A stretch of DNA of 64,000 bases from Candidatus Omnitrophota bacterium (GCA_043823745.1 JBDRAN010000016.1:1243-65242); one strand, 5' to 3'. Shown: positions 526 through 57,600, counted from the first letter of the stretch. The notes: generated by a model from the sequence alone, not told the origin. A program made the numbers and translations.

Positions 526-827
526 TCGTGAAAGGATTCCTGCGTTCCTGGCAAGAATTTGATCTGGAGGATGTCAAAAAGCATCTTATCGTGGTAGGCG
601 AGCTTTCCTCGGATTGCTTTTGCTGCCGCAAGATAGGGCTTGATTCTCATGCGCGGGCCTGCCCGAGCTGTAAAGCCTATTTTAAATATATGGGGTTTCG
701 TCGGCATGTTGACGGAGGCTATATTCATAAACTTCGCGCCGAACTCCCCAGTATTATTTTTATAGATTTTGATGACTTCAAAAAACTTATCGGGCAGCAA
801 CAAGCGAGGAAACTTTTAGATATTTAG
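522..827 (+). CDS. small Zn-ribbon protein (CxxC…CxxC), hypothetical
   Basis: 101-aa ORF whose TTG/GTG start overlaps the stop of the LOG gene (translational coupling). Has CFCC and CPSC cysteine pairs. No recognisable family. Confidence 0.35.
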   Translation: MIVKGFLRSWQEFDLEDVKKHLIVVGELSSDCFCCRKIGLDSHARACPSCKAYFKYMGFRRHVDGGYIHKLRAELPSIIFIDFDDFKKLIGQQQARKLLDI

Positions 828-904
828 CTGCAAGCCGCAGGCTGCAGGCTTCAAGCTTTTGTATTTTAAGCTTGTAGCATGAAGCGTGCAGCTTGTTTTG
901 CGCC

Positions 905-18979: not shown

Positions 18980-19612
18980 ATGAAGTGGTTCATTTCACAG
19001 GATACCATCAAATCGTCTTTCCAAAAAACCCTGCAAGAGCATTGCGGCGAAAAGGTAACCCATTGTTATCAATGCGGCAAGTGTTCCGCGGGCTGCCCTA
19101 TTGCTTACCAAATGGATTATCTTCCCAACCAAATTATTCGAATGGTGCAGTTAGGCATGGAGAAGGAGGTTTTATCCAGTAACACCATGTGGCTGTGCGC
19201 TTCTTGTATTACCTGCACTTCCCGGTGCCCGAGGGAGATTGATATTGCTGAAATCATGGATTACCTACGACGGCGGGCATACAGAAAAGGTATCATGCCT
19301 AAAAGAGATATCGAGATACCTCTTTTTAACAAGATTTTTCTGAAAAACATCGAACTATTCGGAAGGCTTTTCGAGATGGGCCTTATTGGTATGTTTAATA
19401 CCTTAAGCGGAGAGTTTTTTAAAGATGTGCCTTTGGCGCCAACGATGTTTTGGAAGCGTAAAATCGGCGTCTTGCCGCATCGGATCAATAATATCAAAGA
19501 AGTAAAAGAAATTTTTAAGAAAGCGGGAAAACTGGGCCGCGCCCGCAGAGGAAGGTTAGTCTACCCTAACCTGATATTTTTTAATCTATTGCGAAAGTTA
19601 TGGAGAAAATAG
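18980..19612 (+). CDS. hdrC: heterodisulfide reductase subunit C-like protein (2x[4Fe-4S])
   Basis: Two ferredoxin-type motifs CYQCGKCSAGCP and CASCITCTSRCP with HdrC-like spacing. About 210 aa. Confidence 0.7.
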   Translation: MKWFISQDTIKSSFQKTLQEHCGEKVTHCYQCGKCSAGCPIAYQMDYLPNQIIRMVQLGMEKEVLSSNTMWLCASCITCTSRCPREIDIAEIMDYLRRRAYRKGIMPKRDIEIPLFNKIFLKNIELFGRLFEMGLIGMFNTLSGEFFKDVPLAPTMFWKRKIGVLPHRINNIKEVKEIFKKAGKLGRARRGRLVYPNLIFFNLLRKLWRK

Positions 19613-19632
19613 AGAAATTAAAATAGTTTATT

Positions 19633-19742
19633 GAGTTCATAGAGTTTATAGAGTTCATAGGGTTATGAAGAACGCAACGAACTCAAGCAACTCAAAGAAC
19701 TCAAAGAACTCAAAGAACTCAAGCAACTCAACGAACTCAAAT
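19633..19742. repeat. heptamer microsatellite tract (gagttcatag / tttatag then aactcaa[a/g][g/c] x8)
   Basis: Directly visible tandem iteration between hdrC stop and hdrB start. The two halves are reverse-complementary families (ttgagtt vs aactcaa). Confidence 0.8.
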
Positions 19743-20618
19743 ATGAAATACGCCTATTATCCCGGGTGCTCGTTGCATTCAACTGCCAGAGAGTATGATA
19801 TGTCTGCCCGGGCGGTTGCTGAGGCTCTCGGAATAGAACTTTTGGAAATTCCTGATTGGATATGTTGTGGTGCCACTCCCGCGCACATCACGATGCATCT
19901 TTTGTCGATCGCTCTTCCGGTAAAGAATCTCCTAAAGGCAAAAGCTATGGGTTCTTATGAAGTAGCGACTTGCTGCGCTGCCTGTTTTAGCCGTTTGAAG
20001 ATTGCCAATGAATTTATGGAAAATAATCCTGAGCATCGTAAAAAAGTAAATGAGATAGTGGGCGAAGAATATAGGGGAGAGGTTAAGGTACGGCATTTTC
20101 TAGATATAATCGTCAATGAATTTGGATTAAAGAATCTCGAGCAGAAGGTAGTAGATAAGTTAAGCGGATTAAAAGTAGCCTGTTATTACGGTTGCCTTTT
20201 AACCCGTCCGCATGAAGTTACTCAGTTTGATGATCTGGAGGCTCCGCATTCGATGGATGATTTGATGAAAACAATCGGGGTAGAGCCTGTTTCCTGGCCG
20301 TATAAGACCGAATGCTGCGGAGCAAGTTTTTCCCTTACCCGGACCGATATTGTACTTAAGCTCTCGGGCGATATTTTGCAGATGGCGGCCGATGAAGGCG
20401 CAGAAGCTATTGTGGTAGCTTGCCCCTTGTGCCAATCAAATCTGGATTTAAGGCAAGCGGCGATTAATAAGAAGTTTAAGAAGAATTTTCAGATGCCGAT
20501 TTTTTATTTTACCCAATTAGTAGGCTTGAGTTTAGGGATCGATCCTAAAAAATTGGGGTTCAGTAGGCATATTGTTAATCCTATGCCGTTGTTGAGAGAA
20601 AAAATAATAAGTTATTGA
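19743..20618 (+). CDS. hdrB: heterodisulfide reductase subunit B-like protein (CCG domains)
   Basis: Starts MKYAYYPGCS as in HdrB. Two cysteine-rich CCG domains (WICCGATP…CAACF and CYYGCLL…ECCGASF…CPLCQ). The ORF-track start 19665 runs through an upstream microsatellite and is not preferred. Confidence 0.75.
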   Translation: MKYAYYPGCSLHSTAREYDMSARAVAEALGIELLEIPDWICCGATPAHITMHLLSIALPVKNLLKAKAMGSYEVATCCAACFSRLKIANEFMENNPEHRKKVNEIVGEEYRGEVKVRHFLDIIVNEFGLKNLEQKVVDKLSGLKVACYYGCLLTRPHEVTQFDDLEAPHSMDDLMKTIGVEPVSWPYKTECCGASFSLTRTDIVLKLSGDILQMAADEGAEAIVVACPLCQSNLDLRQAAINKKFKKNFQMPIFYFTQLVGLSLGIDPKKLGFSRHIVNPMPLLREKIISY

Positions 20619-20748
20619 GTTATAGGGTTATTGGGTTATAGAGTTAAACCCAAGTAACCCAAGTAACCCAAGTAACTCAAGTAACTCAAGTAACTCAACG
20701 AACCCAATAACTCAATAGACTCAAGTAACCCAAGTAACCCAAGTAACT
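20613..20748. repeat. microsatellite tract (gttatag / ttgggtt then caagtaac[c/t] x10) filling the hdrB-hdrA junction
   Basis: Visible tandem 9-mer cccaagtaa / ctcaagtaa repeats. Begins at the hdrB stop codon and ends at the hdrA ATG. Confidence 0.8.
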
Positions 20749-22773
20749 ATGAAGATAGGCGTATTCATTTGTCATTGCGGTACTAATATCTCCGCAACCG
20801 TGGATGTGGAAAAGGTTGCGCAGGCATTATCCCTCTTTCCAAAAGTTAAATTCTCCACCACCTACAAATATATGTGCTCTGATCCCGGGCAAGGCCTCCT
20901 TCGGCAGTCGATTAAAGAGCACAAATTAGATCGCATTGTTATCTCTTCTTGCAGTCCGCGTCTGCATGAGAAGACTTTTAAGAAGTGCGTTGAGGATGCC
21001 GGAATAAATCCTTACTTAGTGGAAATGGCTAATATTCGCGAACACTGTTCCTGGGTGCATCGTGACAGGGAACAAGCGACTAAAAAGGCAATAGAAATTA
21101 CAAGGATGGCCGTGGCTAAAGTTTCGCGCGACAAGCCTTTGCAGAAGACGTATACATCCATCGAAAAGAAGGTTTTGATTATTGGCGCAGGTATATCCGG
21201 TATACAGTCGGCCATTGATATTTCTTTTGCCCGTTATCCGGTAACTATGATTGAGAAGGAGCCGACCATCGGAGGCAGGATGGCCCGTTTTGATAAGACC
21301 TTTCCTACTCTTGATTGTGCAGCTTGCATTTTGACTCCTAAAATGGTTACCGTGGCTCAGAGTGAATATGTTACTATTCATACTTATTCTGAAGTAGAAG
21401 AGGTTAGCGGCCATATCGGTAATTTTAAAGTTAAATATAGAAAGAAGGCGCGTTCCGTTGATTTACATAAATGCACCGGTTGCGGCGCTTGTTGGAATAA
21501 ATGTCCGGTGAAAGTTGACTCTGAGTTTGATTTGGGTCTAGGAAAAAGGAAAGCAATATACGTACCATTTGCGCAGGCTGTTCCTAATGTCCCGGTGATT
21601 GATAGAAAGAATTGCCTTTGGTTTACCCCGTTAGAGAAAGCCCCGGACAAAGCCGGTGAAAAAAGTTCTCTAACGGGGTTTACGCAGAAGAAATGCGGCC
21701 TGTGTAAAAAAATCTGTTCCTTCGGGGCTATTGATTATGATATGCAGGATGAAATTATTGAAGAAAAATTCGGCGCCATAATTGTCGCTACCGGCTTTGA
21801 GCAATTTGACCATGCGGTTTACGGCGAATACGGCTACGGAAAGTTTAAAGATGTGATTACAGGCTTACATTTTGAACGTATGGCGAATTCTTCCGGGCCG
21901 ACGGAAGGTAAGATTGTCCGGCCTTCAGACGGGAAAGAAGCGCAGGATGTCGTATTTATTCAGTGTGTGGGCTCGCGCGATGAACAGAAAGGCGTGCCCT
22001 ATTGTTCGCGTCTCTGTTGTATGTACACCGCAAAACACGCGCTTTTACTTAAAGAGCATAATAAAGATTCACAGGCCTATGTTTTTTATATTGACATTAG
22101 AGCCGCAGGTAAGAATTATGAGGAGTTTTTAAAAAGAGTCCAGACTGATTATGGTGCGGTTTATTTAAGGGGAAGGGTTTCGCGCATTTTTGAAAAGGGC
22201 GGTAAACTTATTGTCAGGGGCGCTGACACTTTAAGCGGCGGGCAGGTAGAAATAAAGGCAGATTTGGTGGTTTTGGCTACGGGCTTGATTGCCCAGCCGG
22301 ACGCGGTAAAACTTGCTCAGATGCTGCATATCCCGTATGACCAGAATAATTTTTTTACCGAAGCACACCCTAAACTTGCGCCGGTTGAAACCATAACCAG
22401 TGGAATTTATCTTACGGGTGCTTGTCAGTCACCCAAGGATATACCGGATACGGTGGCCACTGCTTCCGCTGCTTCAGTGAAGGCTTTGGGGCTGATGGTA
22501 CAGGATACATTAGAAAGAGAGCCTATCGTGGCTAAGGTTAATCCTGATGCATGTTCCGGATGTCGTGCCTGCATCCAAGCTTGTCCATTTAGTGCTATAG
22601 AGGAAAATGAAATTGAAGATAGAAGACTTAAGCGCAAAAGAATCGTGGCTAAGGTCTTGGAAGGAGTTTGCACTGGCTGTGGCAACTGCACTGCGGTTTG
22701 CCGAATGGCGGCTATAGACTTGGAAGGTTTTACCAATAGGCAGGTTATGGAAGAAATTGAAAGTCTTAGTTGA
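20749..22773 (+). CDS. hdrA: heterodisulfide reductase subunit A-like FAD/Fe-S protein
   Basis: N-terminal Cys cluster (MKIGVFICHCGTNIS). FAD-binding VLIIGAGISGIQSA. Ferredoxin motifs CTGCGACWNKCP, CSGCRACIQACP and CTGCGNCTAVC. C-terminal Cys-rich inserted-ferredoxin arrangement. 674 aa. Confidence 0.8.
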   Translation: MKIGVFICHCGTNISATVDVEKVAQALSLFPKVKFSTTYKYMCSDPGQGLLRQSIKEHKLDRIVISSCSPRLHEKTFKKCVEDAGINPYLVEMANIREHCSWVHRDREQATKKAIEITRMAVAKVSRDKPLQKTYTSIEKKVLIIGAGISGIQSAIDISFARYPVTMIEKEPTIGGRMARFDKTFPTLDCAACILTPKMVTVAQSEYVTIHTYSEVEEVSGHIGNFKVKYRKKARSVDLHKCTGCGACWNKCPVKVDSEFDLGLGKRKAIYVPFAQAVPNVPVIDRKNCLWFTPLEKAPDKAGEKSSLTGFTQKKCGLCKKICSFGAIDYDMQDEIIEEKFGAIIVATGFEQFDHAVYGEYGYGKFKDVITGLHFERMANSSGPTEGKIVRPSDGKEAQDVVFIQCVGSRDEQKGVPYCSRLCCMYTAKHALLLKEHNKDSQAYVFYIDIRAAGKNYEEFLKRVQTDYGAVYLRGRVSRIFEKGGKLIVRGADTLSGGQVEIKADLVVLATGLIAQPDAVKLAQMLHIPYDQNNFFTEAHPKLAPVETITSGIYLTGACQSPKDIPDTVATASAASVKALGLMVQDTLEREPIVAKVNPDACSGCRACIQACPFSAIEENEIEDRRLKRKRIVAKVLEGVCTGCGNCTAVCRMAAIDLEGFTNRQVMEEIESLS

Positions 22774-22826
22774 TGGTTTATAGTCTATAGTTTATAGCTA
22801 TAAACCATACACCATAAACTATAAAC
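22774..22826. repeat. self-complementary tttatag/ctataaac repeat hairpin at hdrA-4HB junction
   Basis: gtttatagtctatagtttatagctataaaccatacaccataaactataaac; the left half is the reverse complement of the right half. Confidence 0.75.
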
Positions 22827-22847
22827 TTGAGGAGCGAAGCGACGAAT

Positions 22848-23201
22848 ATGTTTGGGTTTGAAAAGCTTGAAGTATGGCAAAGAACACGAGAGTTTTTAAA
22901 AGGAATTTATAAAGTTACAACTAATTTTCCAAAAGAAGAACAATTTGGGTTATCGCAACATGTGCGAAAAAGTGCGGTTTCTATTCTTTCTAACATTGCA
23001 GAAGCAACAAGTAGATTTGGCGATGTTGATTTTAAAAGATTTATCGAAATAGCAATAGGTTCTTTATATGAGACCATAAGTCAGTTGTTCATAGCTTTAG
23101 ATAATAATTATTTAGATAAGAAAAATTTTGAAGCTCTTTACAAAGATGCAGAAATTATAGTTAAAATGCTTAGCAAACTTTCAAAATCGCGAGGGATCTA
23201 A
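22848..23201 (+). CDS. four-helix-bundle protein (TIGR02436 / 23S rRNA intervening-sequence protein family)
   Basis: MFGFEKLEVWQRTREFLKGIYKVTTNFPKEEQFGLSQHVRKSAVSILSNIAEATSRFGDVDFKRFIEIAIGSLYET… is the characteristic sequence of this family. RBS gaggag upstream of ATG 22848. Markedly AT-rich relative to the flanking hdrA and mvhD. Confidence 0.75.
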   Translation: MFGFEKLEVWQRTREFLKGIYKVTTNFPKEEQFGLSQHVRKSAVSILSNIAEATSRFGDVDFKRFIEIAIGSLYETISQLFIALDNNYLDKKNFEALYKDAEIIVKMLSKLSKSRGI

Positions 23202-23202
23202 C

Positions 23203-23667
23203 GTGCAGAGCGAATTTAGCCATAAACCATCAACCATCAACCATCAACCAGAAGATTGGGAGCCTAAAATAGTCGGATTCTTATGTAATTGGTGCAGTTA
23301 CGCCGGAGCGGATTTAGCCGGGACTTCACGTATGGAATATCCTCACAATATCAAAATTATCAGGGTTCCCTGCTCCGGAAGAGTGAACCCGCTTTTTGTG
23401 CTTAAGTGCCTCATGAACGGCGCGGATGGAGTATTGGTTTCCGGCTGTCATATTGGTGATTGTCATTATTCAGAAGGCAATTTCTACGCGCGTAGGCGTT
23501 TTGCCGTATTGCAGAAGCTTCTTGAGTACGCGGGGATTGACCCGAGGAGATTTCAGATGTCCTGGGTTTCTGCGTCAGAAGGACAAAAGTGGGCCACGTT
23601 GGTCAAGGGATTAGTGGAGGAGATTAAGCAGGCAGGGCCTAATAAGTTGATAGTTGATAGTGTATAG
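23203..23667 (+). CDS. mvhD: MvhD/FlxD-like hydrogenase delta-subunit-type [2Fe-2S] protein
   Basis: KIVGFLCNWCSYAGADLAG … RVPCSGRVNPLFVLKCLMNGADGVLVSGCHIGDCHY matches the methyl-viologen-reducing hydrogenase delta subunit domain. The GTG start is uncertain because the N-terminal 15 codons run through a ccatcaa microsatellite. Confidence 0.7.
   Translation: MQSEFSHKPSTINHQPEDWEPKIVGFLCNWCSYAGADLAGTSRMEYPHNIKIIRVPCSGRVNPLFVLKCLMNGADGVLVSGCHIGDCHYSEGNFYARRRFAVLQKLLEYAGIDPRRFQMSWVSASEGQKWATLVKGLVEEIKQAGPNKLIVDSV
23216..23250. repeat. ccatcaa / ataaacc heptamer repeat at 5' end of mvhD ORF
   Basis: cataaaccatcaaccatcaaccatcaacca, read in frame as KPSTINHQP. Confidence 0.7.
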
Positions 23668-23706
23668 TTGATGGCTATAAACCATCAACCATAAACCATA
23701 AACGAA
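23660..23706. repeat. ataaacc/ccatcaa repeat hairpin at mvhD-frhB-like junction
   Basis: gtatagttgatggctataaaccatcaaccataaaccataaacg; ttgatgg pairs with ccatcaa. Confidence 0.7.
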
Positions 23707-24588
23707 ATGATTGAAGAAGTAAAGAATAAGGCAAAGGAATTATTAAGAACCAAACAAGTTGATTTGATTATTGGTTATAAAAGAGCATCTGACGGAGTAT
23801 TTGCAATACCTTGTTTTATCTATAAGGAAAAGGAGGCAGATGTCTTAATCTGGGATGCCTATTGCGTGTATAACCTCGCTAATTATTTGAAGGATTTTCC
23901 CGGCAACAAGGTAGGGATAATAGCCAAGGATTGCGATATTAAATCGATTATCGTCCTGTTGCAGGAGAATCAGCTGAAACGGGAAGATGTCTTTATTATT
24001 GGTATCGAATGTATGGGGGTAGTTAATGAGAAGAAGCTGGACAGGCGGAACACAGATGCCGAAGAAATAGGTTACCATGAGAAATGCCGTGCTTGTAAAC
24101 CGGCGATACCGGTTTTTTGTGATGTAGTGATAGCTGGAGAAAAGAAAGAACCAGCTCATCATGCACAGGAGGATGCATACGTCTCGGTGCGTACATTCGA
24201 AGCAAAATCACTCAAAGAAAGATTTAAATTCTGGGAGGAAGAGTTTAAAAGATGTATCCGCTGTTATGCCTGCAGGCAAGTTTGTCCGATGTGTTACTGT
24301 CCGCGCTGTGTGGCGGATCAATCCATGCCGGCATGGTTCTCCAGGGCAACGGATTACAAGGGAAATTTGTCTTGGAACCTTACGCGCGCGATTCATTTGG
24401 CAGGAAGGTGCATTGATTGCGGCGAATGTGAAAGAGTCTGCCCAGTCGGCATTCCTTTGCGGGATATCAATAAAAAGCTGGAGAAAGACGTACAGGAGAT
24501 GTTTAAGTACACGGCAGGGACAAGTATTGAACAGAAACCTCTTCTTGCCGGTTTTGATAAAAATGATCCGGATGAATTCATTAAATGA
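23707..24588 (+). CDS. FrhB/FdhB/FlxC-like iron-sulfur flavoprotein subunit (4Fe-4S dicluster)
   Basis: C-terminal CIRCYACRQVCPMCYC … CIDCGECERVCP ferredoxin-like clusters. N-terminal half resembles the F420-hydrogenase beta-subunit fold. Assignment is by family resemblance only. Confidence 0.5.
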   Translation: MIEEVKNKAKELLRTKQVDLIIGYKRASDGVFAIPCFIYKEKEADVLIWDAYCVYNLANYLKDFPGNKVGIIAKDCDIKSIIVLLQENQLKREDVFIIGIECMGVVNEKKLDRRNTDAEEIGYHEKCRACKPAIPVFCDVVIAGEKKEPAHHAQEDAYVSVRTFEAKSLKERFKFWEEEFKRCIRCYACRQVCPMCYCPRCVADQSMPAWFSRATDYKGNLSWNLTRAIHLAGRCIDCGECERVCPVGIPLRDINKKLEKDVQEMFKYTAGTSIEQKPLLAGFDKNDPDEFIK

Positions 24589-24790
24589 GGCCACAACTTA
24601 CGGAGCCGCCGCTTCAGAAGCAGGCGAACGTAAGTTGTTTGGTCGAATTTATCCCGAGCTTACGCAGAAAATTTCAAAGAAATTTTCAAGTGTTTAAGCG
24701 AGGGGTAGTTGTGGAAGGTGCTAATCCACAAGGGATAGGCCTTCCTGATACCATTAAAGGAAGGGCTTAATCCACCGACTTTAGTCGGTT

Positions 24791-25795
24791 GTGGGGTGCG
24801 GGATGCAAAGAATTATAACCAAAGAAGAGCTTAGCTCTACATTAAAAGAACTCCTGAAGGAGTACGAAGTTATTGCCCCCAAGGACCTGTCTAACAAGGG
24901 CATTTTTTATCAGGAGATTTCAGATGTCGCAGATTTATGCTTGGGGGGCGGATTTGCCATCGAGCCCATAAAGAAATTTTTCCTCGAGCCTTGTTCCCGG
25001 ATTTGTAAGCATAGTCAAGATGATGGAGCAGGAGCTCAGGCCATAGAGCAACCCCAGAAAAAAAGGATTATTATCGGGGCTCGCCCCTGTGAAGCACGCG
25101 GCCTTGAGCTTTTAGACAAGATATTTGATGGTGAGCTCAAAGATAGTTTTTATATCAATAACCGCGCTCGGACCCTTATTGTCGGCCTGGCCTGTAATGA
25201 ACCTGATGGGTGCTGTTTCTGTACTTCTATGAGCGGCTCGCCCGTGGAAACCCGGGGGATGGATGCTCTATTGTTTGATTTTGCAGATACGTATGTCGTA
25301 GCAGTAATTACCGAGAAGGCAAAAAATATATTTGGCTCATTTGGAAAAGAACTCGACGCTCAAACTAAGAGAAGTTGGGAAAAGGATAATGAAAAAAGGA
25401 TTAATTCCTTGCAGAAGAAAATATCCCCCCCCAAGAGCATGGATGATATTTTTCAAAGCGATTATTGGAAAGAAGCTTCTCAATCTTGCTTAAGTTGTGG
25501 GATTTGCACCTTTTTATGCCCGACGTGCCACTGTTTTGATCTTATTGACGAAGAAAGAAAGATGTTTCGGTGTTATGACGGCTGTGCCTTCCCGGATTTT
25601 ACCCTTGAAGCATCAGGTGGAAATCCTCGGCCAGGCAAAAAAGAACGCTACCGCCAGCGGGTTTATCATAAATTTGATTATTTTAAGAAAAATTTCGGCG
25701 AAAATCTTTGTGTTGGCTGCGGAAGATGCATTAGGCATTGTCCGGTTAAGATAGATATAGCAGAAATCGTCGCTAACGCGCCGATTAGCGGATAG
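24791..25795 (+). CDS. AsrA/HydB-like 4Fe-4S subunit (sulfhydrogenase beta / anaerobic sulfite reductase subunit A family)
   Basis: Cys clusters CCFCTSMSGSP, CLSCGICTFLCPTCHC and CVGCGRCIRHCP, with length near 330 aa as in AsrA/HydB. Confidence 0.55.
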   Translation: MGCGMQRIITKEELSSTLKELLKEYEVIAPKDLSNKGIFYQEISDVADLCLGGGFAIEPIKKFFLEPCSRICKHSQDDGAGAQAIEQPQKKRIIIGARPCEARGLELLDKIFDGELKDSFYINNRARTLIVGLACNEPDGCCFCTSMSGSPVETRGMDALLFDFADTYVVAVITEKAKNIFGSFGKELDAQTKRSWEKDNEKRINSLQKKISPPKSMDDIFQSDYWKEASQSCLSCGICTFLCPTCHCFDLIDEERKMFRCYDGCAFPDFTLEASGGNPRPGKKERYRQRVYHKFDYFKKNFGENLCVGCGRCIRHCPVKIDIAEIVANAPISG

Positions 25796-25796
25796 T

Positions 25797-25878
25797 CGAT
25801 GTAGTTTATGGTTTATGGCAGTAATCTTCTCCCAAGCTATAAACCATACACCATCAACTATCAACTAAATTGTAAACT
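25797..25878. repeat. tttatgg/ccataaac repeat hairpin at asrA-like / asrB-like junction
   Basis: gtagtttatggtttatgg … ctataaaccatacaccatcaactatcaact; the two arms are complementary. Confidence 0.7.
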
Positions 25879-26760
25879 ATGCAAAATATTTATTTGCCTC
25901 ATTTAGCTGAAATAATTGATATCAAGCAGGAAACCCCTGATGTAAAGACGTTTAAACTGCACTTTACGGACGAGGCTGTAGCAAAGACATTCGATTATAA
26001 GCCCGGCCAATTCGTAGAATTATCGGTTTTCGGAGAAGGAGAAGCAACATTCTGTATTTCTAACTCTCCTACGCGGGGGATTCTTACCAAATCAACCAAC
26101 TCAACGAACTCAAGTAACTCAACGAACTTTATAAACTCTATAGAATGCAGCGTTAAACGTATGGGGAAGGTTACTCAGGCCCTCCACGAACTAGACGTTG
26201 GGGATATGGTTGGTATTCGGGGTCCCTACGGTAATGGTTTCCCGGTTGCAGACTTAAAGGGTAAAAACCTCGTGTTTGTTGCCGGCGGTATCGGGCTTGC
26301 GCCCCTGCGTTCTTTGATTAATTATGTCCTGGATAAGCGCAGCGATTTTAAGACCATTACCATTGTTAACGGCGCCAAGACCTCCAGGGACTTAGTCTAT
26401 CAAGATGAGTATGAAACGTGGAAGAAAGGAAAAGATACCTTCTTGCATTTAACCGTTGATTGTAATGAAGAAAATTGGACGTGCATGGTGGGGGTAGTGC
26501 CGAAGATTTTAGAAGAAATTAAACCGACGTGTAACGGCAGTGTGGCTATCGTATGCGGCCCCCCGGTCATGATTAAATTTACCATGCCTGTTCTTTTGAA
26601 GCTGGGGTTTTGCCCTGAGGCCATAATTACGACACTAGAAATGAGGATGAAATGTGGTTTGGGTAAATGCGGTAGATGCAATATTGGCAATCTCTATGTT
26701 TGTAAGGATGGCCCGGTTTTTACGTATCAACAGTTAGAGAGCCTCAACTTCGAGTATTAA
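25879..26760 (+). CDS. AsrB/HydG/PyrK-like FAD/NAD(P)-binding [2Fe-2S] oxidoreductase subunit
   Basis: Ferredoxin-reductase-type FAD-binding beta-barrel (KPGQFVELSVFGEGEATFCIS). NAD-binding LVFVAGGIGLAPLRS. C-terminal 2Fe-2S C-x-C-x2-C…C (CGLGKCGRCNIGNLYVC). Carries a roughly 20-aa in-frame STNS-rich insert encoded by an aactcaa microsatellite. Confidence 0.65.
   Translation: MQNIYLPHLAEIIDIKQETPDVKTFKLHFTDEAVAKTFDYKPGQFVELSVFGEGEATFCISNSPTRGILTKSTNSTNSSNSTNFINSIECSVKRMGKVTQALHELDVGDMVGIRGPYGNGFPVADLKGKNLVFVAGGIGLAPLRSLINYVLDKRSDFKTITIVNGAKTSRDLVYQDEYETWKKGKDTFLHLTVDCNEENWTCMVGVVPKILEEIKPTCNGSVAIVCGPPVMIKFTMPVLLKLGFCPEAIITTLEMRMKCGLGKCGRCNIGNLYVCKDGPVFTYQQLESLNFEY
26088..26150. repeat. in-frame aactcaa microsatellite inside the asrB-like CDS
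   Basis: accaaatcaaccaactcaacgaactcaagtaactcaacgaactttataaactctatag encodes TKSTNSTNSSNSTNFINS. Confidence 0.75.
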
Positions 26761-43316: not shown

Positions 43317-43362
43317 GAAGCCCTTTTGTAAGCAGAGTTTTGCTTATGGAAGGGCTTTTTTT
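43317..43362 (+). terminator. second intrinsic terminator
   Basis: gaagccctt … aagggcttc stem enclosing an inner hairpin, followed by ttttttt. Confidence 0.5.
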
Positions 43363-43700
43363 AATGAGCAGATGCTTTTCTGTTTCTTCGAAACAGAAAA
43401 GCATAGTCCCGCGACAAGCGGGGCGTCTGCGAATTAACTCGACGAGCTTCGGTAAATTTTCAGAGAAAATTTACCCGATATACAGGCGAGTCGAAGACGA
43501 GGAGTAACCGTGAGTTTTGAAGAGTTGTTAATGAGCAGATACTTTTCTGTTTCTTCGAAAACAGAAAAATATAGTCCCGCGATAAGCGGGGCGTCTGCGA
43601 ATTAGTTCGACGAGCTTCGGTAAATTTTCAGAGAAAATTTACTCGATATCCAGGCGAGTCGAAGTCAAGGGGTAACCATGAGCTTTGAAGAGTTATTAAC
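43363..43700 (+). repeat. 167-bp tandem direct duplication (2 copies) of the sigma-factor leader plus first 8 codons
   Basis: Copy 1 is 43363..43529 and copy 2 is 43530..43700, at over 90% identity. Each copy contains three perfect or near-perfect hairpins: cttttctgtttc-ttcgaa-gaaacagaaaag, cccgc-gacaa-gcggg, and ggtaaatttt-cagag-aaaatttacc. Copy 2 ends in ATGAGCTTTGAAGAGTTATTAAC (the sigma gene start). Copy 1 ends in the same sequence with a GTG start. Confidence 0.85.
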
Positions 43701-44196
43701 CAGGATTAAGCCAAAACTACGGGGCATTGCCGTTAAGCTTGATGGCCGGTATACGTCTTTTAATGATGATGACCTTTGTCAGGAGGCGCTGTGTGTTCTT
43801 TGGGAAAAGTATCAGAGAGGCGAACTTTCCAATAAGACCGATAGTTATATTCTGCAGGGTTGTCTTTTCTTTCTGAAGAACTACATTCGCAAGGCATACA
43901 CCAGAATCGATTCGCTTTCAATGAGTCTTGAAAAAACGGTTAATGAAAACGAGGATACGCTCGAAGATTTTGTTCCGGCAGAGGAATCGTGCCCGCAGGT
44001 GCGACGCAGCGGGTATCTTGAGCGTGATATTCGAGCCTATTTGGATGAACGGGAAGCAGTAGTGCTTGCGTTGTATATTCGAGATTTTACCACTCGTGAG
44101 ATCGGTTGCCGGCTTGGCATTTCTCACGTCATGGTGGTTAAGATTATTGCTCGAATTAAGGTAAAATGTTCCGCGCTTAAGGAAGAAATTATGTAG
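43678..44196 (+). CDS. small sigma-70-family RNA polymerase sigma factor (ECF-like, regions 2 and 4)
   Basis: C-terminal region-4 HTH (FTTREIGCRLGISHVMVVKIIARIK) and an N-terminal region-2-like segment. 172 aa. Confidence 0.5.
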   Translation: MSFEELLTRIKPKLRGIAVKLDGRYTSFNDDDLCQEALCVLWEKYQRGELSNKTDSYILQGCLFFLKNYIRKAYTRIDSLSMSLEKTVNENEDTLEDFVPAEESCPQVRRSGYLERDIRAYLDEREAVVLALYIRDFTTREIGCRLGISHVMVVKIIARIKVKCSALKEEIM

Positions 44197-47316: not shown

Positions 47317-47386
47317 GGACGAGGGATGAAGGACGAGGGATGATGGACGAGGGACGAAGGACGCAATACTCAATACTCAATACTTT
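47317..47386. repeat. short tandem repeats (ggacgagggatga x3-4 then caatact x3) in the amt-glnK spacer
   Basis: Directly visible: ggacgagggatgaaggacgagggatgatggacgagggacgaaggacg caatactcaatactcaatact. Confidence 0.75.
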
Positions 47387-57393: not shown

Positions 57394-57472
57394 CTGGTAG
57401 CTACCAGCTCTCAGCTCTCAGCTTTCAGCTATCAGCCAGGGAAATACAAAAAGCTGAAGACTGATAGCTGAC

Positions 57473-57600
57473 GACTGTCCCGTTTCCTATAATATTATAA
57501 TAAGGTGCGGGACGCCCCGAACCTTGATAAGCAAATAAAGAAAACGGGTGCTGTCCCGTTTCCTATAATAGTTTATTAAGGTGCGGGACGCCCCGAATCC
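57473..57600. repeat. two copies of a roughly 55-bp direct repeat, each with a GTCCCG…CGGGAC inverted repeat, in the gltB-gltD spacer
   Basis: ctgtcccgtttcctataatattataataaggtgcgggacgccccgaa at 57473..57527, again at 57552..57600 (about 90% identical). Preceded by the palindrome ctggtagctaccag, (cagctnt)n repeats and the inverted repeat cagctatcag / ctgatagctg. Confidence 0.8.

Follow-up and report, generated by a model that had tools for sequence, protein, structure and literature searches.

How the junctions of an operon of core energy-metabolism genes came to be filled by tandem repeats of seven to nine nucleotides is the question raised by the hdr-mvhD cluster of a Candidatus Omnitrophota metagenome-assembled genome (MAG). 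The window, that is, the whole stretch of DNA that was analysed, is 64,000 nucleotides long, and the cluster occupies its positions 18980-26760; all window coordinates refer to the + strand. According to Pfam, the cluster encodes, in this order, HdrC, HdrB, HdrA, a 117-aa PF05635 protein ('4HB', for four-helix bundle), MvhD, an FrhB-like protein, an AsrA-like Fer4_22 protein and an AsrB-like FAD/NAD protein, which resembles sulfhydrogenase gamma 9nez_C most. An NCBI entry from an Omnitrophota MAG matches the AsrB-like protein at 100% identity. The tracts are probably lineage-specific selfish DNA: cassettes that carry the 4HB gene and resemble the intervening sequences (IVSs) of ribosomal RNA, together with solo derivatives of such cassettes, would have colonised the intercistronic junctions with expression of the host genes preserved.

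Tandem Repeats Finder (TRF) places 7-, 8- or 9-mers at six of the seven cluster junctions and one more tract within asrB, and leaves the frhB/asrA junction free of them, as the preliminary description of this DNA had it. The window holds 12 arrays of period 7-9 with a TRF score of at least 40; 30 shuffles of it that preserve the dinucleotides average 0.07 such arrays and never exceed 1. Nine of the 12 lie inside the 6.5-kb cluster, where the six junctions are filled, in agreement with the earlier statement that the tracts sit at junctions; they are concentrated there and not randomly scattered. Nine of the 12 are wholly intergenic and three overlap coding sequence (the MvhD N-terminus, the MvhD C-terminus and the AsrB loop); the CCATCAA run at 23220-23250, which had been listed among the junction repeats, is no spacer but lies within the mvhD open reading frame (ORF). 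The junctions measure 39-214 nt. The arrays fall into two families. Those of family B, with a period of 7 and 3.6-4.4 copies, belong with the heptamer simple sequence repeats (SSRs), defined by at least three head-to-tail copies; those of family A, with a period of 8-9, fit that definition only loosely.

Five junctions consist of a GT-rich run and, 3' of it, a CA-rich run that is its reverse complement. The unit pairs quoted earlier as reverse complements are indeed so, and the inverted arms are 75-94% complementary. Several left arms include the stop codon or the last codons of the upstream gene. A hairpin had been expected at each junction, and at five of the six the RNA does fold better than its shuffles (z -2.3 to -5.2; -18.1 kcal/mol, z -2.3, at hdrA/4HB). 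The exception is the 4HB/mvhD tract (z +1.1), which, like the in-frame asrB tract (z +0.2), is a single CA-rich arm with no fold on its own. The features are collected in Table 1. The ATG at 19665, at the apex of the hdrC/hdrB hairpin, shares the frame of hdrB.

Table 1. Hairpins, arrays and related features of the window, with folding energies and z values relative to shuffled sequences
Feature	Position	Strand	Fold	Remarks
Family A hairpin, hdrC/hdrB	19625..19741	+	-29.6 kcal/mol, z -4.2	
Period-9 arrays, hdrC/hdrB	19625-19664; 19668-19741	+		TRF; left AGTTCATAG x4.4; right AAGAACTCA x8.2, stops 1 nt short of hdrB ATG at 19743
Family A hairpin, hdrB/hdrA	20605..20747	+	-37.0 kcal/mol, z -5.2	
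hdrB/hdrA arrays	20610-20646 (period 8); 20647-20747 (period 9)	+		TRF; left AGTTATAG/AGTTATTG, holds hdrB stop TGA at 20616-20618; right AACCCAAGT/AACTCAAGT x11.3, adjoins hdrA ATG at 20749
IVS-like 4HB cassette, hdrA/mvhD junction	22768..23250	+		PF05635 ORF with bracketing arrays
Period-7 arrays flanking the 4HB gene	22776-22826; 23220-23250	+		TRF
Gene-less (solo) family B hairpin, mvhD/frhB	23645..23703	+	-13.2 kcal/mol, z -2.8	
Period-7 arrays, mvhD/frhB	23645-23672; 23677-23703	+		TRF; left GTTGATAGTTGATAGTGTATAGTTGATGG, codes for last MvhD residues and TAG stop at 23665-23667; right CTATAAACCATCAACCATAAACCATAAAC, stops 3 nt short of frhB-like ATG at 23707
frhB/asrA spacer	24589-24802	+		No 7-9-mer arrays; 214 nt, compared with 0-102 nt in relatives
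Solo family B hairpin, asrA/asrB	25785..25868	+	-32.2 kcal/mol, z -5.2	Left arm with asrA stop TAG at 25793-25795; loop about 16 nt; right arm GCTATAAACCATACACCATCAACTATCAACT; asrB-like ATG at 25879, 3' of the hairpin
Period-7 arrays, asrA/asrB	25804-25818; 25853-25867	+		TRF
In-frame family A half-element, CA-rich orientation only	26086..26150	+		9-nt units; FAD-binding domain loop of AsrB-like protein
Period-9 array inside asrB	26086-26128	+		TRF
Heptamer hairpin outside the operon	826..900	+	-38 kcal/mol, z -3.2	Unrelated units (AGCTGCA...)
amtB/glnK direct heptamer arrays	47317..47384	+	No hairpin, z -0.5	GGACGAG x6.7, CAATACT x3
gltB/gltD heptamer hairpin	57394..57480	+	-29.4 kcal/mol, z -2.4	CAGCTCT x4.6 and complement; begins immediately 3' of the gltB stop

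The same operon in related genomes gives the history of these junctions. Relatives with 77-80% HdrA identity (loci L001-L003, L081 and L082 among those fetched for comparison) have the same seven genes in the same order, with junctions of about -4 to +50 nt, no arrays, no 4HB gene and an AsrB of 275 aa. In L002, hdrC, hdrB and hdrA overlap by ATGA (4 nt), and the mvhD and frhB genes also overlap; in L001, hdrA and mvhD overlap. The tracts are therefore not a designed part of the hdr operon: the corresponding junctions of the closest relatives overlap or abut without them, and similar tracts lie in amtB/glnK and gltB/gltD. As the arrays at these two junctions and upstream of gltB have units unrelated to those of the cluster, the phenomenon is genome-wide and not specific to hdr. 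The tract at 47317, which had been described as one of the same kind, is a real array but of unrelated units and without a hairpin. In L163, the mvhD/frhB junction holds a -38 kcal/mol hairpin of entirely different heptamers, and at asrA/asrB, L161 has a different 9-mer array, and L144, L125 and L126 have 4HB cassettes. The tracts thus appear to be lineage-specific insertions and not an ancestral feature of the operon. The best identity reached by HdrA in the genome and metagenome scans is 80%, and look-ups for proteins exactly like the window's HdrA and AsrB gave no match. The mvhD/frhB junction of L001 (3340-3700), a locus without heptamer tracts, is taken up by another kind of insertion, about 360 nt long, in which a long inverted repeat is nearly perfect (ctcgtctctttggtcagaggctggctgcaaaaag ... 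complement); these operon junctions may thus be recurrent landing sites. The frhB/asrA spacer of the window is very strongly self-structured (251 nt fold at -91.3 kcal/mol, and several stems of 10 bp are perfect), and a BLAST search with it gave just a marginal 54-nt match and no convincing match elsewhere.

The element at the hdrA/mvhD junction starts with a GT-rich array (22768-22797), inside which lies the hdrA stop codon TGA (22771-22773), and an extra CA-rich arm (22798-22827). A Shine-Dalgarno (SD) sequence (GAGGAG, 22829-22834), the 4HB ORF (22848-23201) and a restart GTG (23203) follow, and the CA-rich right array is read in frame as an N-terminal extension of MvhD (SHKPSTINHQP). The arms of this cassette pair at -24.0 kcal/mol, compared with -12.6+-2.8 kcal/mol for shuffled arms; the values are -52.3 vs -21.8+-4.2 in L163 and -62.3 vs -23.5+-4.8 kcal/mol in L144, and z ranges from -1.5 to -6.9 in the other cassettes. 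The 4HB protein matches PF05635 (E=9e-36), TIGR02436 (110 bits, with a cutoff of 24) and PDB entry 2gsc (E=4e-17), and PADLOC gives no defence-system match for it. PF05635/TIGR02436 is the protein of 23S rRNA intervening sequences, the 'S23p' four-helix bundle. Since the 4HB gene belongs to the S23p family, the cassette is built like an rRNA IVS, with an S23p ORF inside a stem, but is placed between co-transcribed protein genes.

Homologues of 4HB with 72-91% identity are found in four host junctions: hdrA/mvhD (L163, the same site as in the window), hemB/hemL, hemB/hemA and JAB/hemA. In all four, an identical left array (TTAGTTGATGGTTGATAGTnTATAGTTTATAG; gtttatag/ttgatag/tgtatag) and an SD precede the 4HB gene, and a stop codon, a new ATG or GTG and a complementary CA-rich right array (GCCATAAACCATCAACTATAAACCATAAAC; gccataaaccatcaactataaaccataaac) follow it. 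The homology across the four contexts starts and stops exactly at the arrays. The 4HB homologues, most of which lie on very short contigs, reach 91% identity, a value that no housekeeping protein of this genome attains (HdrA 80%, AsrB 82%). Between the window and L163, 4HB is 89.7% identical and its neighbours 65-82% (HdrA C-terminus 70%, MvhD 82.5%, FrhB 65%). Translation from the cassette start would always pass through the downstream array in one and the same frame, which gives MvhD, HemL and HemA an N-terminal extension of the 'HKPSTINHK' type, which is absent from the native MvhD of a relative (L001), beginning MTSNEKTWEPK. Gene calls leave a spacer of only 3-40 nt around the 4HB genes of the heme operons; the arrays are present there, the downstream one being read into the next gene.

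These observations suggest that the 4HB gene, which had been listed as one more gene of the cluster, is the cargo of a repeat element bracketed by the same arrays in four host junctions and not one more operon subunit. The core element is about 480 nt long and consists of a GT-rich array, an SD, the 117-aa 4HB gene, a stop, a new start and a complementary CA-rich array. In L169 and in L170-L172, an identical 4HB protein (P0135) is followed by the same hemA, and the upstream neighbour differs, being either a JAB-domain gene or hemB; this suggests either a rearrangement at the cassette or strain variation.

The remaining tracts of the cluster can be related to the cassette. The arms of the mvhD/frhB hairpin match the cassette termini, joined at GGC/GC, and the hairpins at mvhD/frhB and asrA/asrB both appear to be two cassette termini joined without the gene, that is, solo derivatives resembling miniature inverted-repeat transposable elements (MITEs). 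In common with MITEs, the two (23645-23703 and 25785-25868) have terminal inverted repeats, no coding capacity and several copies. The second family, A, of the same architecture, appears to comprise the in-frame asrB tract as well as the hairpins of 9-mers in the hdrC/hdrB and hdrB/hdrA junctions. An exact, non-periodic 19-mer, CTCAAGTAACTCAACGAAC, which spans two different unit variants, is common to 20685-20703 and 26109-26127, and recurs with one mismatch at 19718-19736 in hdrC/hdrB; none is expected by chance. Because of this common 19-mer, the family A tracts are copies of one another. A 9-mer array, GTAACTCAT x8, with a partly complementary left arm, lies at the hdrC/hdrB junction of L116 (8740-8900), which belongs to an unrelated lineage with 54% HdrA identity. 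Its units are identical at 8/9 positions to those of the window's hdrB/hdrA junction; this was considered as a case of horizontal spread and is not used here, as it could be due to chance given the number of arrays compared.

Some copies are read in frame. The in-frame asrB tract encodes ...GILTKSTNSTNSSNSTNFINS..., and AsrB homologues are typically 274-276 aa long compared with 293 aa in the window, the extra 18-20 residues lying between NSPTR and IECSVKRMG. The insert falls in an alignment gap against 9nez_C, which places it in a loop, and the earlier suggestion that it is a lineage-specific in-frame insert is thereby upheld. The predicted peptides encoded by arrays are SHKPSTINHQPEDWEPK in MvhD and STNSTNSSNSTNFINSIECSVK in AsrB. 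At least 8 other AsrB homologues have unrelated low-complexity inserts of 8-42 aa at the identical point, an insertion hotspot; for some inserts (L161, L162) the coding DNA consists of tandem repeats that are prone to form hairpins. The inserts in L161 (300-450) and L162 (1730-1860) are 38-42 aa long (GFGYGFGH..RKPNHG..) and are encoded by 30-42-nt tandem units with complementary ggctttggcc/ggccaaacc motifs; the annotated AsrB start codon of L161 lies within a 9-mer array. Elsewhere in relatives, a family B array is in frame in the CobA-HemD linker and an entire hairpin is in frame in HemB. The HemB of L164 (1869-2960) has a peptide of about 21 aa (K/Q-KPARPGKAKRAGETRVQKPE) twice in one protein, one copy being at the site where L170 and L167 have the in-frame family B hairpin, which implies another family of in-frame mobile mini-inserts.

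By combining these features, it is possible to describe how the elements might be tolerated. The left arms contain the stop codons of hdrB, hdrA, mvhD and asrA; the GT-rich arm carries TGA, TAG or TAA and ends the upstream ORF. The CA-rich arm is free of stops in the frame that is used and is then translated as a short extension at the N-terminus or in a loop (in MvhD and AsrB here, and in HemL, HemA, HemB and CobA-HemD in relatives); otherwise it is an unstructured leader without an SD, adjoining the next start codon. The cassette supplies the SDs of the 4HB gene and of mvhD. The genes hdrB, hdrA, frhB and asrB have no SD (0 to +2.1 kcal/mol, compared with a median of -5.7 for 50 other genes). 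Read from the sequence, this design would keep the host operon working. The downstream genes without an SD might be translated by ribosomes that arrive from the upstream ORF and re-initiate. The arriving ribosomes would melt the hairpin, the 5' arm of which overlaps the stop codon, and this would substitute for the ancestral coupling by ATGA overlap. The long stems are candidate substrates of RNase III, as in rRNA IVSs. The arrays might turn over by replication slippage together with template switching within the hairpin, and the elements might spread by recombination between arrays or by some activity linked to the 4HB protein.

The association of 4HB genes with arrays is not confined to the heme and hdr operons. 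A profile search over about 2.4 Mb of fetched loci gave further 4HB genes in L144, in L125 and L126 (a related pair from one lineage) and in L114, each bracketed by its own array and the reverse complement of it (CAGTCGG x34 and complement in L144). An automatic search for complementary array pairs gave 13 pairs in 10 other loci; it demanded consensus units within 1 mismatch and missed the window's own degenerate arrays. A tblastn search of 4HB against plasmids gave 28 records, mostly Nostocales plus Riemerella, from which eight genes were chosen for taxonomic spread before their flanks were seen. Seven of the eight have flanking heptamer arrays, and in four the arrays are complementary (z -2.3 to -8.2): Nostoc GGGAGTA/CCCTACT, Geminocystis AAGGGAA/TTTCCCT, Riemerella GGTTTAA/AACCTTG and Picosynechococcus. 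In Nostoc punctiforme the complement, on the downstream side, is just short and partial. Among the eleven 4HB genes checked in all in other lineages (Nostoc, Geminocystis, Riemerella and metagenome contigs), ten have flanking arrays, seven to nine of these complementary. The background is sparse: a 50-kb stretch of Riemerella DNA has a single array scoring at least 40, at a distance of 45 nt from the 4HB gene. In Nostoc edaphicum the 4HB gene has the two strongest arrays on its flanks, and a gene-less complementary pair of the same unit family lies about 4 kb away, a layout like that of the window. Several of the plasmid 4HB genes are inside cas operons, among them array-flanked genes of the Picosynechococcus (L175; cas10/cmr3) and Pseudanabaena (L176; cas6/cas4) plasmids; the Pseudanabaena arrays are direct and not inverted (AAAGCTA x14, AAAGCCA x10). 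With 15 junctions or genes as its basis, 14 of them with arrays, the cross-phylum association is not yet to be called general. A wider proposal is rather doubtful: 4HB (TIGR02436/S23p, Avd-like) genes might define a widespread, hitherto overlooked class of selfish cassettes with complementary heptamer termini. Such cassettes and their gene-less derivatives might have given rise to many of the heptamer SSRs of cyanobacteria (STRR, short tandemly repeated repetitive sequences), Bacteroidota, Omnitrophota and others, and to the 23S IVSs that bear S23p. The pentameric 4HB protein might bind the arrays in the form of RNA or single-stranded DNA and help them to expand, persist or spread.

The hairpins invite another explanation, namely that they are intercistronic RNA elements adaptive for the host, similar to repetitive extragenic palindromic (REP) sequences and selected for mRNA stability or processing, so as to set subunit stoichiometry in the hdr operon. 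Five junctions have hairpins more stable than shuffles, located exactly between stop and start codons, and the mvhD/frhB hairpin of L163 is kept with completely different units, as if the architecture and not the sequence were conserved; moreover, the rRNA IVS stems around this gene family are RNase III substrates (PMC4990558). However, the nearest relatives have the same operon without the tracts, the same elements occur in unrelated operons and within coding regions, and they travel with a selfish-looking gene. There is also no G.U or sense-strand bias. Scans for terminators and promoters found nothing beyond chance at the junctions and no terminator-like features, and Rfam at the gathering threshold gave only three tRNAs in the window, no rRNA and no match for the tracts. 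Adaptation of the host is therefore an unlikely origin. RNA processing, translational occlusion or coupling, and slippage may be among the consequences of the tracts.

Plain microsatellites, arising neutrally by local slippage in AT-rich spacers with no element identity and no tie to 4HB, are disfavoured and improbable. Heptamers are the commonest class of long SSRs in many prokaryotes and mostly intergenic (Mrazek 2007, as cited in PMC4679880 and PMC4692102), the units here vary from site to site, and the copy number in the Coxiella IVS varies too. Slippage alone, however, does not explain a run followed by its own reverse complement, the identical non-periodic 19-mer at three sites, the agreement of the array termini on both sides of one gene across four host junctions or the enrichment of arrays beside 4HB genes in other phyla.

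It is very improbable that the tracts are slipped-strand contingency loci, in which gain or loss of 7 nt in the CCATCAA run would shift MvhD out of frame from the cassette start and changes in leader length would tune translation or switch it on and off. Seven nucleotides cannot be divided into whole codons, and the run shares the mvhD frame; heptanucleotide phase variation of Haemophilus hmw1A, with involvement of RNase III, is known (PMC8262952, PMC12721329), and the Coxiella IVS repeats have 2 or 3 copies. Yet the translated right array has equal length in the window and in L163 despite unit substitutions (the left arrays are organised differently), the runs are short and contain mismatches, perfect units numbering 3, the coding-sequence tracts of 9-nt units preserve the frame, and the targets are core energy-metabolism genes and not surface antigens. 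Mis-assembly or mis-binning of repeats into MAG junctions, suggested by relatives' contigs that often end in arrays (L161, which starts 100 nt upstream of asrB, and L165, L166, L170 and L171), can hardly be the cause, as the cassette is found with intact frames in independent assemblies (NCBI, JGI, ENA, Logan) and in finished cyanobacterial and Riemerella replicons, and the flanking ORFs of the window are all intact.

The elements have precedents, and the claim that they represent no known operon feature has to be given up. Cyanobacteria, Xanthomonas and Beggiatoaceae are known to have heptamer SSRs between their genes, some of them intercistronic or arranged as pairs of inverted arrays (PMC4692102, PMC4679880). 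Heptameric repeats also flank the S23p ORF in the 23S IVS of Coxiella, which has inverted repeats at its ends; the tandem heptamers upstream of S23p number 2 or 3 depending on the strain, and RNase III cuts at the first repeat (PMC4990558). The S23p-bearing 23S rRNA IVSs of Coxiella burnetii, Leptospira, Brucella and Xanthomonas share with the present cassette the PF05635/TIGR02436 cargo, a size of about 430-480 nt, an ORF within stem-forming terminal inverted repeats and transcription by read-through from a host promoter. Unlike them, the cassette is located between protein genes of an operon and not in helix 25 or 45 of 23S rRNA, its stems are wholly heptamer arrays, gene-less and in-frame coding copies exist, and it provides an upstream stop, a downstream start codon and an in-frame linker. 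The heptamer SSRs (STRR of Calothrix and Nostoc; TAACTGA of Beggiatoaceae, cyanobacteria and Bacteroidetes; GGGAATC of Xanthomonas) are likewise tandem 7-nt units, mostly intergenic and often directly upstream of starts, found between operon genes (pecE/pecF), paired as inverted arrays in Xanthomonas and turning over rapidly in length and sequence between relatives (PMC4679880, PMC4692102). The published ones have one dominant unit per genome and no link to a gene (PMC4679880, PMC4692102), whereas here the units differ by site, include 8- and 9-nt ones and form arrays paired with their complements, and the 4HB gene is physically joined to one of the families. In the literature no paper was found on the operon-junction form or on a general association of 4HB genes with arrays.

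REP sequences and the bacterial interspersed mosaic elements (BIMEs) built of them, Correia repeat enclosed elements (CREEs) and MITEs are also short, non-coding, palindromic and multi-copy, lie between co-transcribed genes and fold in mRNA; Correia hairpins are reported to be RNase III substrates, and REPs stabilise upstream mRNA. The present elements differ in that their arms are tandem arrays and not unique inverted repeats, and there is no sequence similarity. Neither an associated transposase nor a target-site duplication accompanies them, with no search aimed at REP-associated tyrosine transposases (RAYTs) or a REP consensus, an imperfect palindrome of 35-40 nt particular to each family, having been made. 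Rickettsia palindromic elements are small repeats inserted in frame in surface loops or linkers of housekeeping proteins, which they do not destroy. The in-frame inserts in AsrB here and in HemB and CobA-HemD in relatives are similar; however, their sequence is unrelated, they are much shorter (about 30-60 nt) and occur in the stop-free CA-rich orientation only, and the AsrB copy is not palindromic.

Several points weigh against selfish cassettes and their solo derivatives as the origin of the tracts. The sense strand folds more stably than the antisense strand in only 9 of 20 elements, and most hairpins of the window fold better antisense. Family A has no cargo gene here and is tied to the cassette class by its architecture only. 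One of the eight plasmid 4HB genes lacks arrays and two have non-complementary ones. The arrays outnumber the 4HB genes, so that the arrays might have come first and taken up the gene by recombination, as a passenger. As to mobility, neither a transposase nor a target-site duplication nor a pair of empty and filled sites from a single species came to light; no transposase lies near the elements in the window, and comparison of the filled sites with the empty sites of L001 and L002 identified no target-site duplication. We know of no enzymatic activity of the 4HB protein. RNase III processing and translational coupling are purely inferred. Finally, all the Omnitrophota data come from MAGs or metagenome contigs, often broken at these repeats.

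Other repeats of the window lie outside the cluster. Downstream of the gltB/gltD heptamer hairpin, the spacer (57475-57597) has two copies of a 47-nt element (CTGTCCCGTTTCCTATAAT...GGTGCGGGACGCCCCGAA) with 94% identity, 76 nt apart. At 904-1318, an 86-aa ORF (1006-1266), which by eye resembles small GIY-YIG-type proteins and has no NCBIfam match, overlaps the start of a tRNA-Arg gene (1243-1318), and a 19-nt copy of the 5' part of this tRNA (gctcaattggatagagcat) at 909-927 adjoins the heptamer hairpin at 826-900; the region looks like another small selfish insertion beside a tRNA gene. At 43358-43699, directly upstream of a sigma-70 region-4-like ORF (43678-44196), lies a tandem duplication of 167-168 nt with 91% identity, internal hairpins in each copy and no Rfam family.

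Heptamer repeats in bacterial genomes have been known since 1990, and rRNA intervening sequences for about as long; to our knowledge, neither has an accepted origin or function. The operon-junction cassette links these two known kinds of element: the locus joins them physically, with the same protein family in both, bracketed by complementary arrays, in ordinary operons. If the association holds genome-wide, the origin of IVSs and of one of the major classes of microsatellites in prokaryotes could be put to the test. The cassette would then be a compact natural module (three-frame stop, SD, ORF, restart codon and open linker), and genes coupled in translation would stay active with it inserted between them; N-terminal extensions like 'HKPSTINHK' and low-complexity loops in Omnitrophota enzymes would have to be annotated with caution, as element-derived. 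The repeats also account for the breaking of MAG contigs of these organisms at gene junctions. The same package of gene and repeats is found in cyanobacteria and other phyla, and it may explain the origin of many bacterial 7-base repeats.

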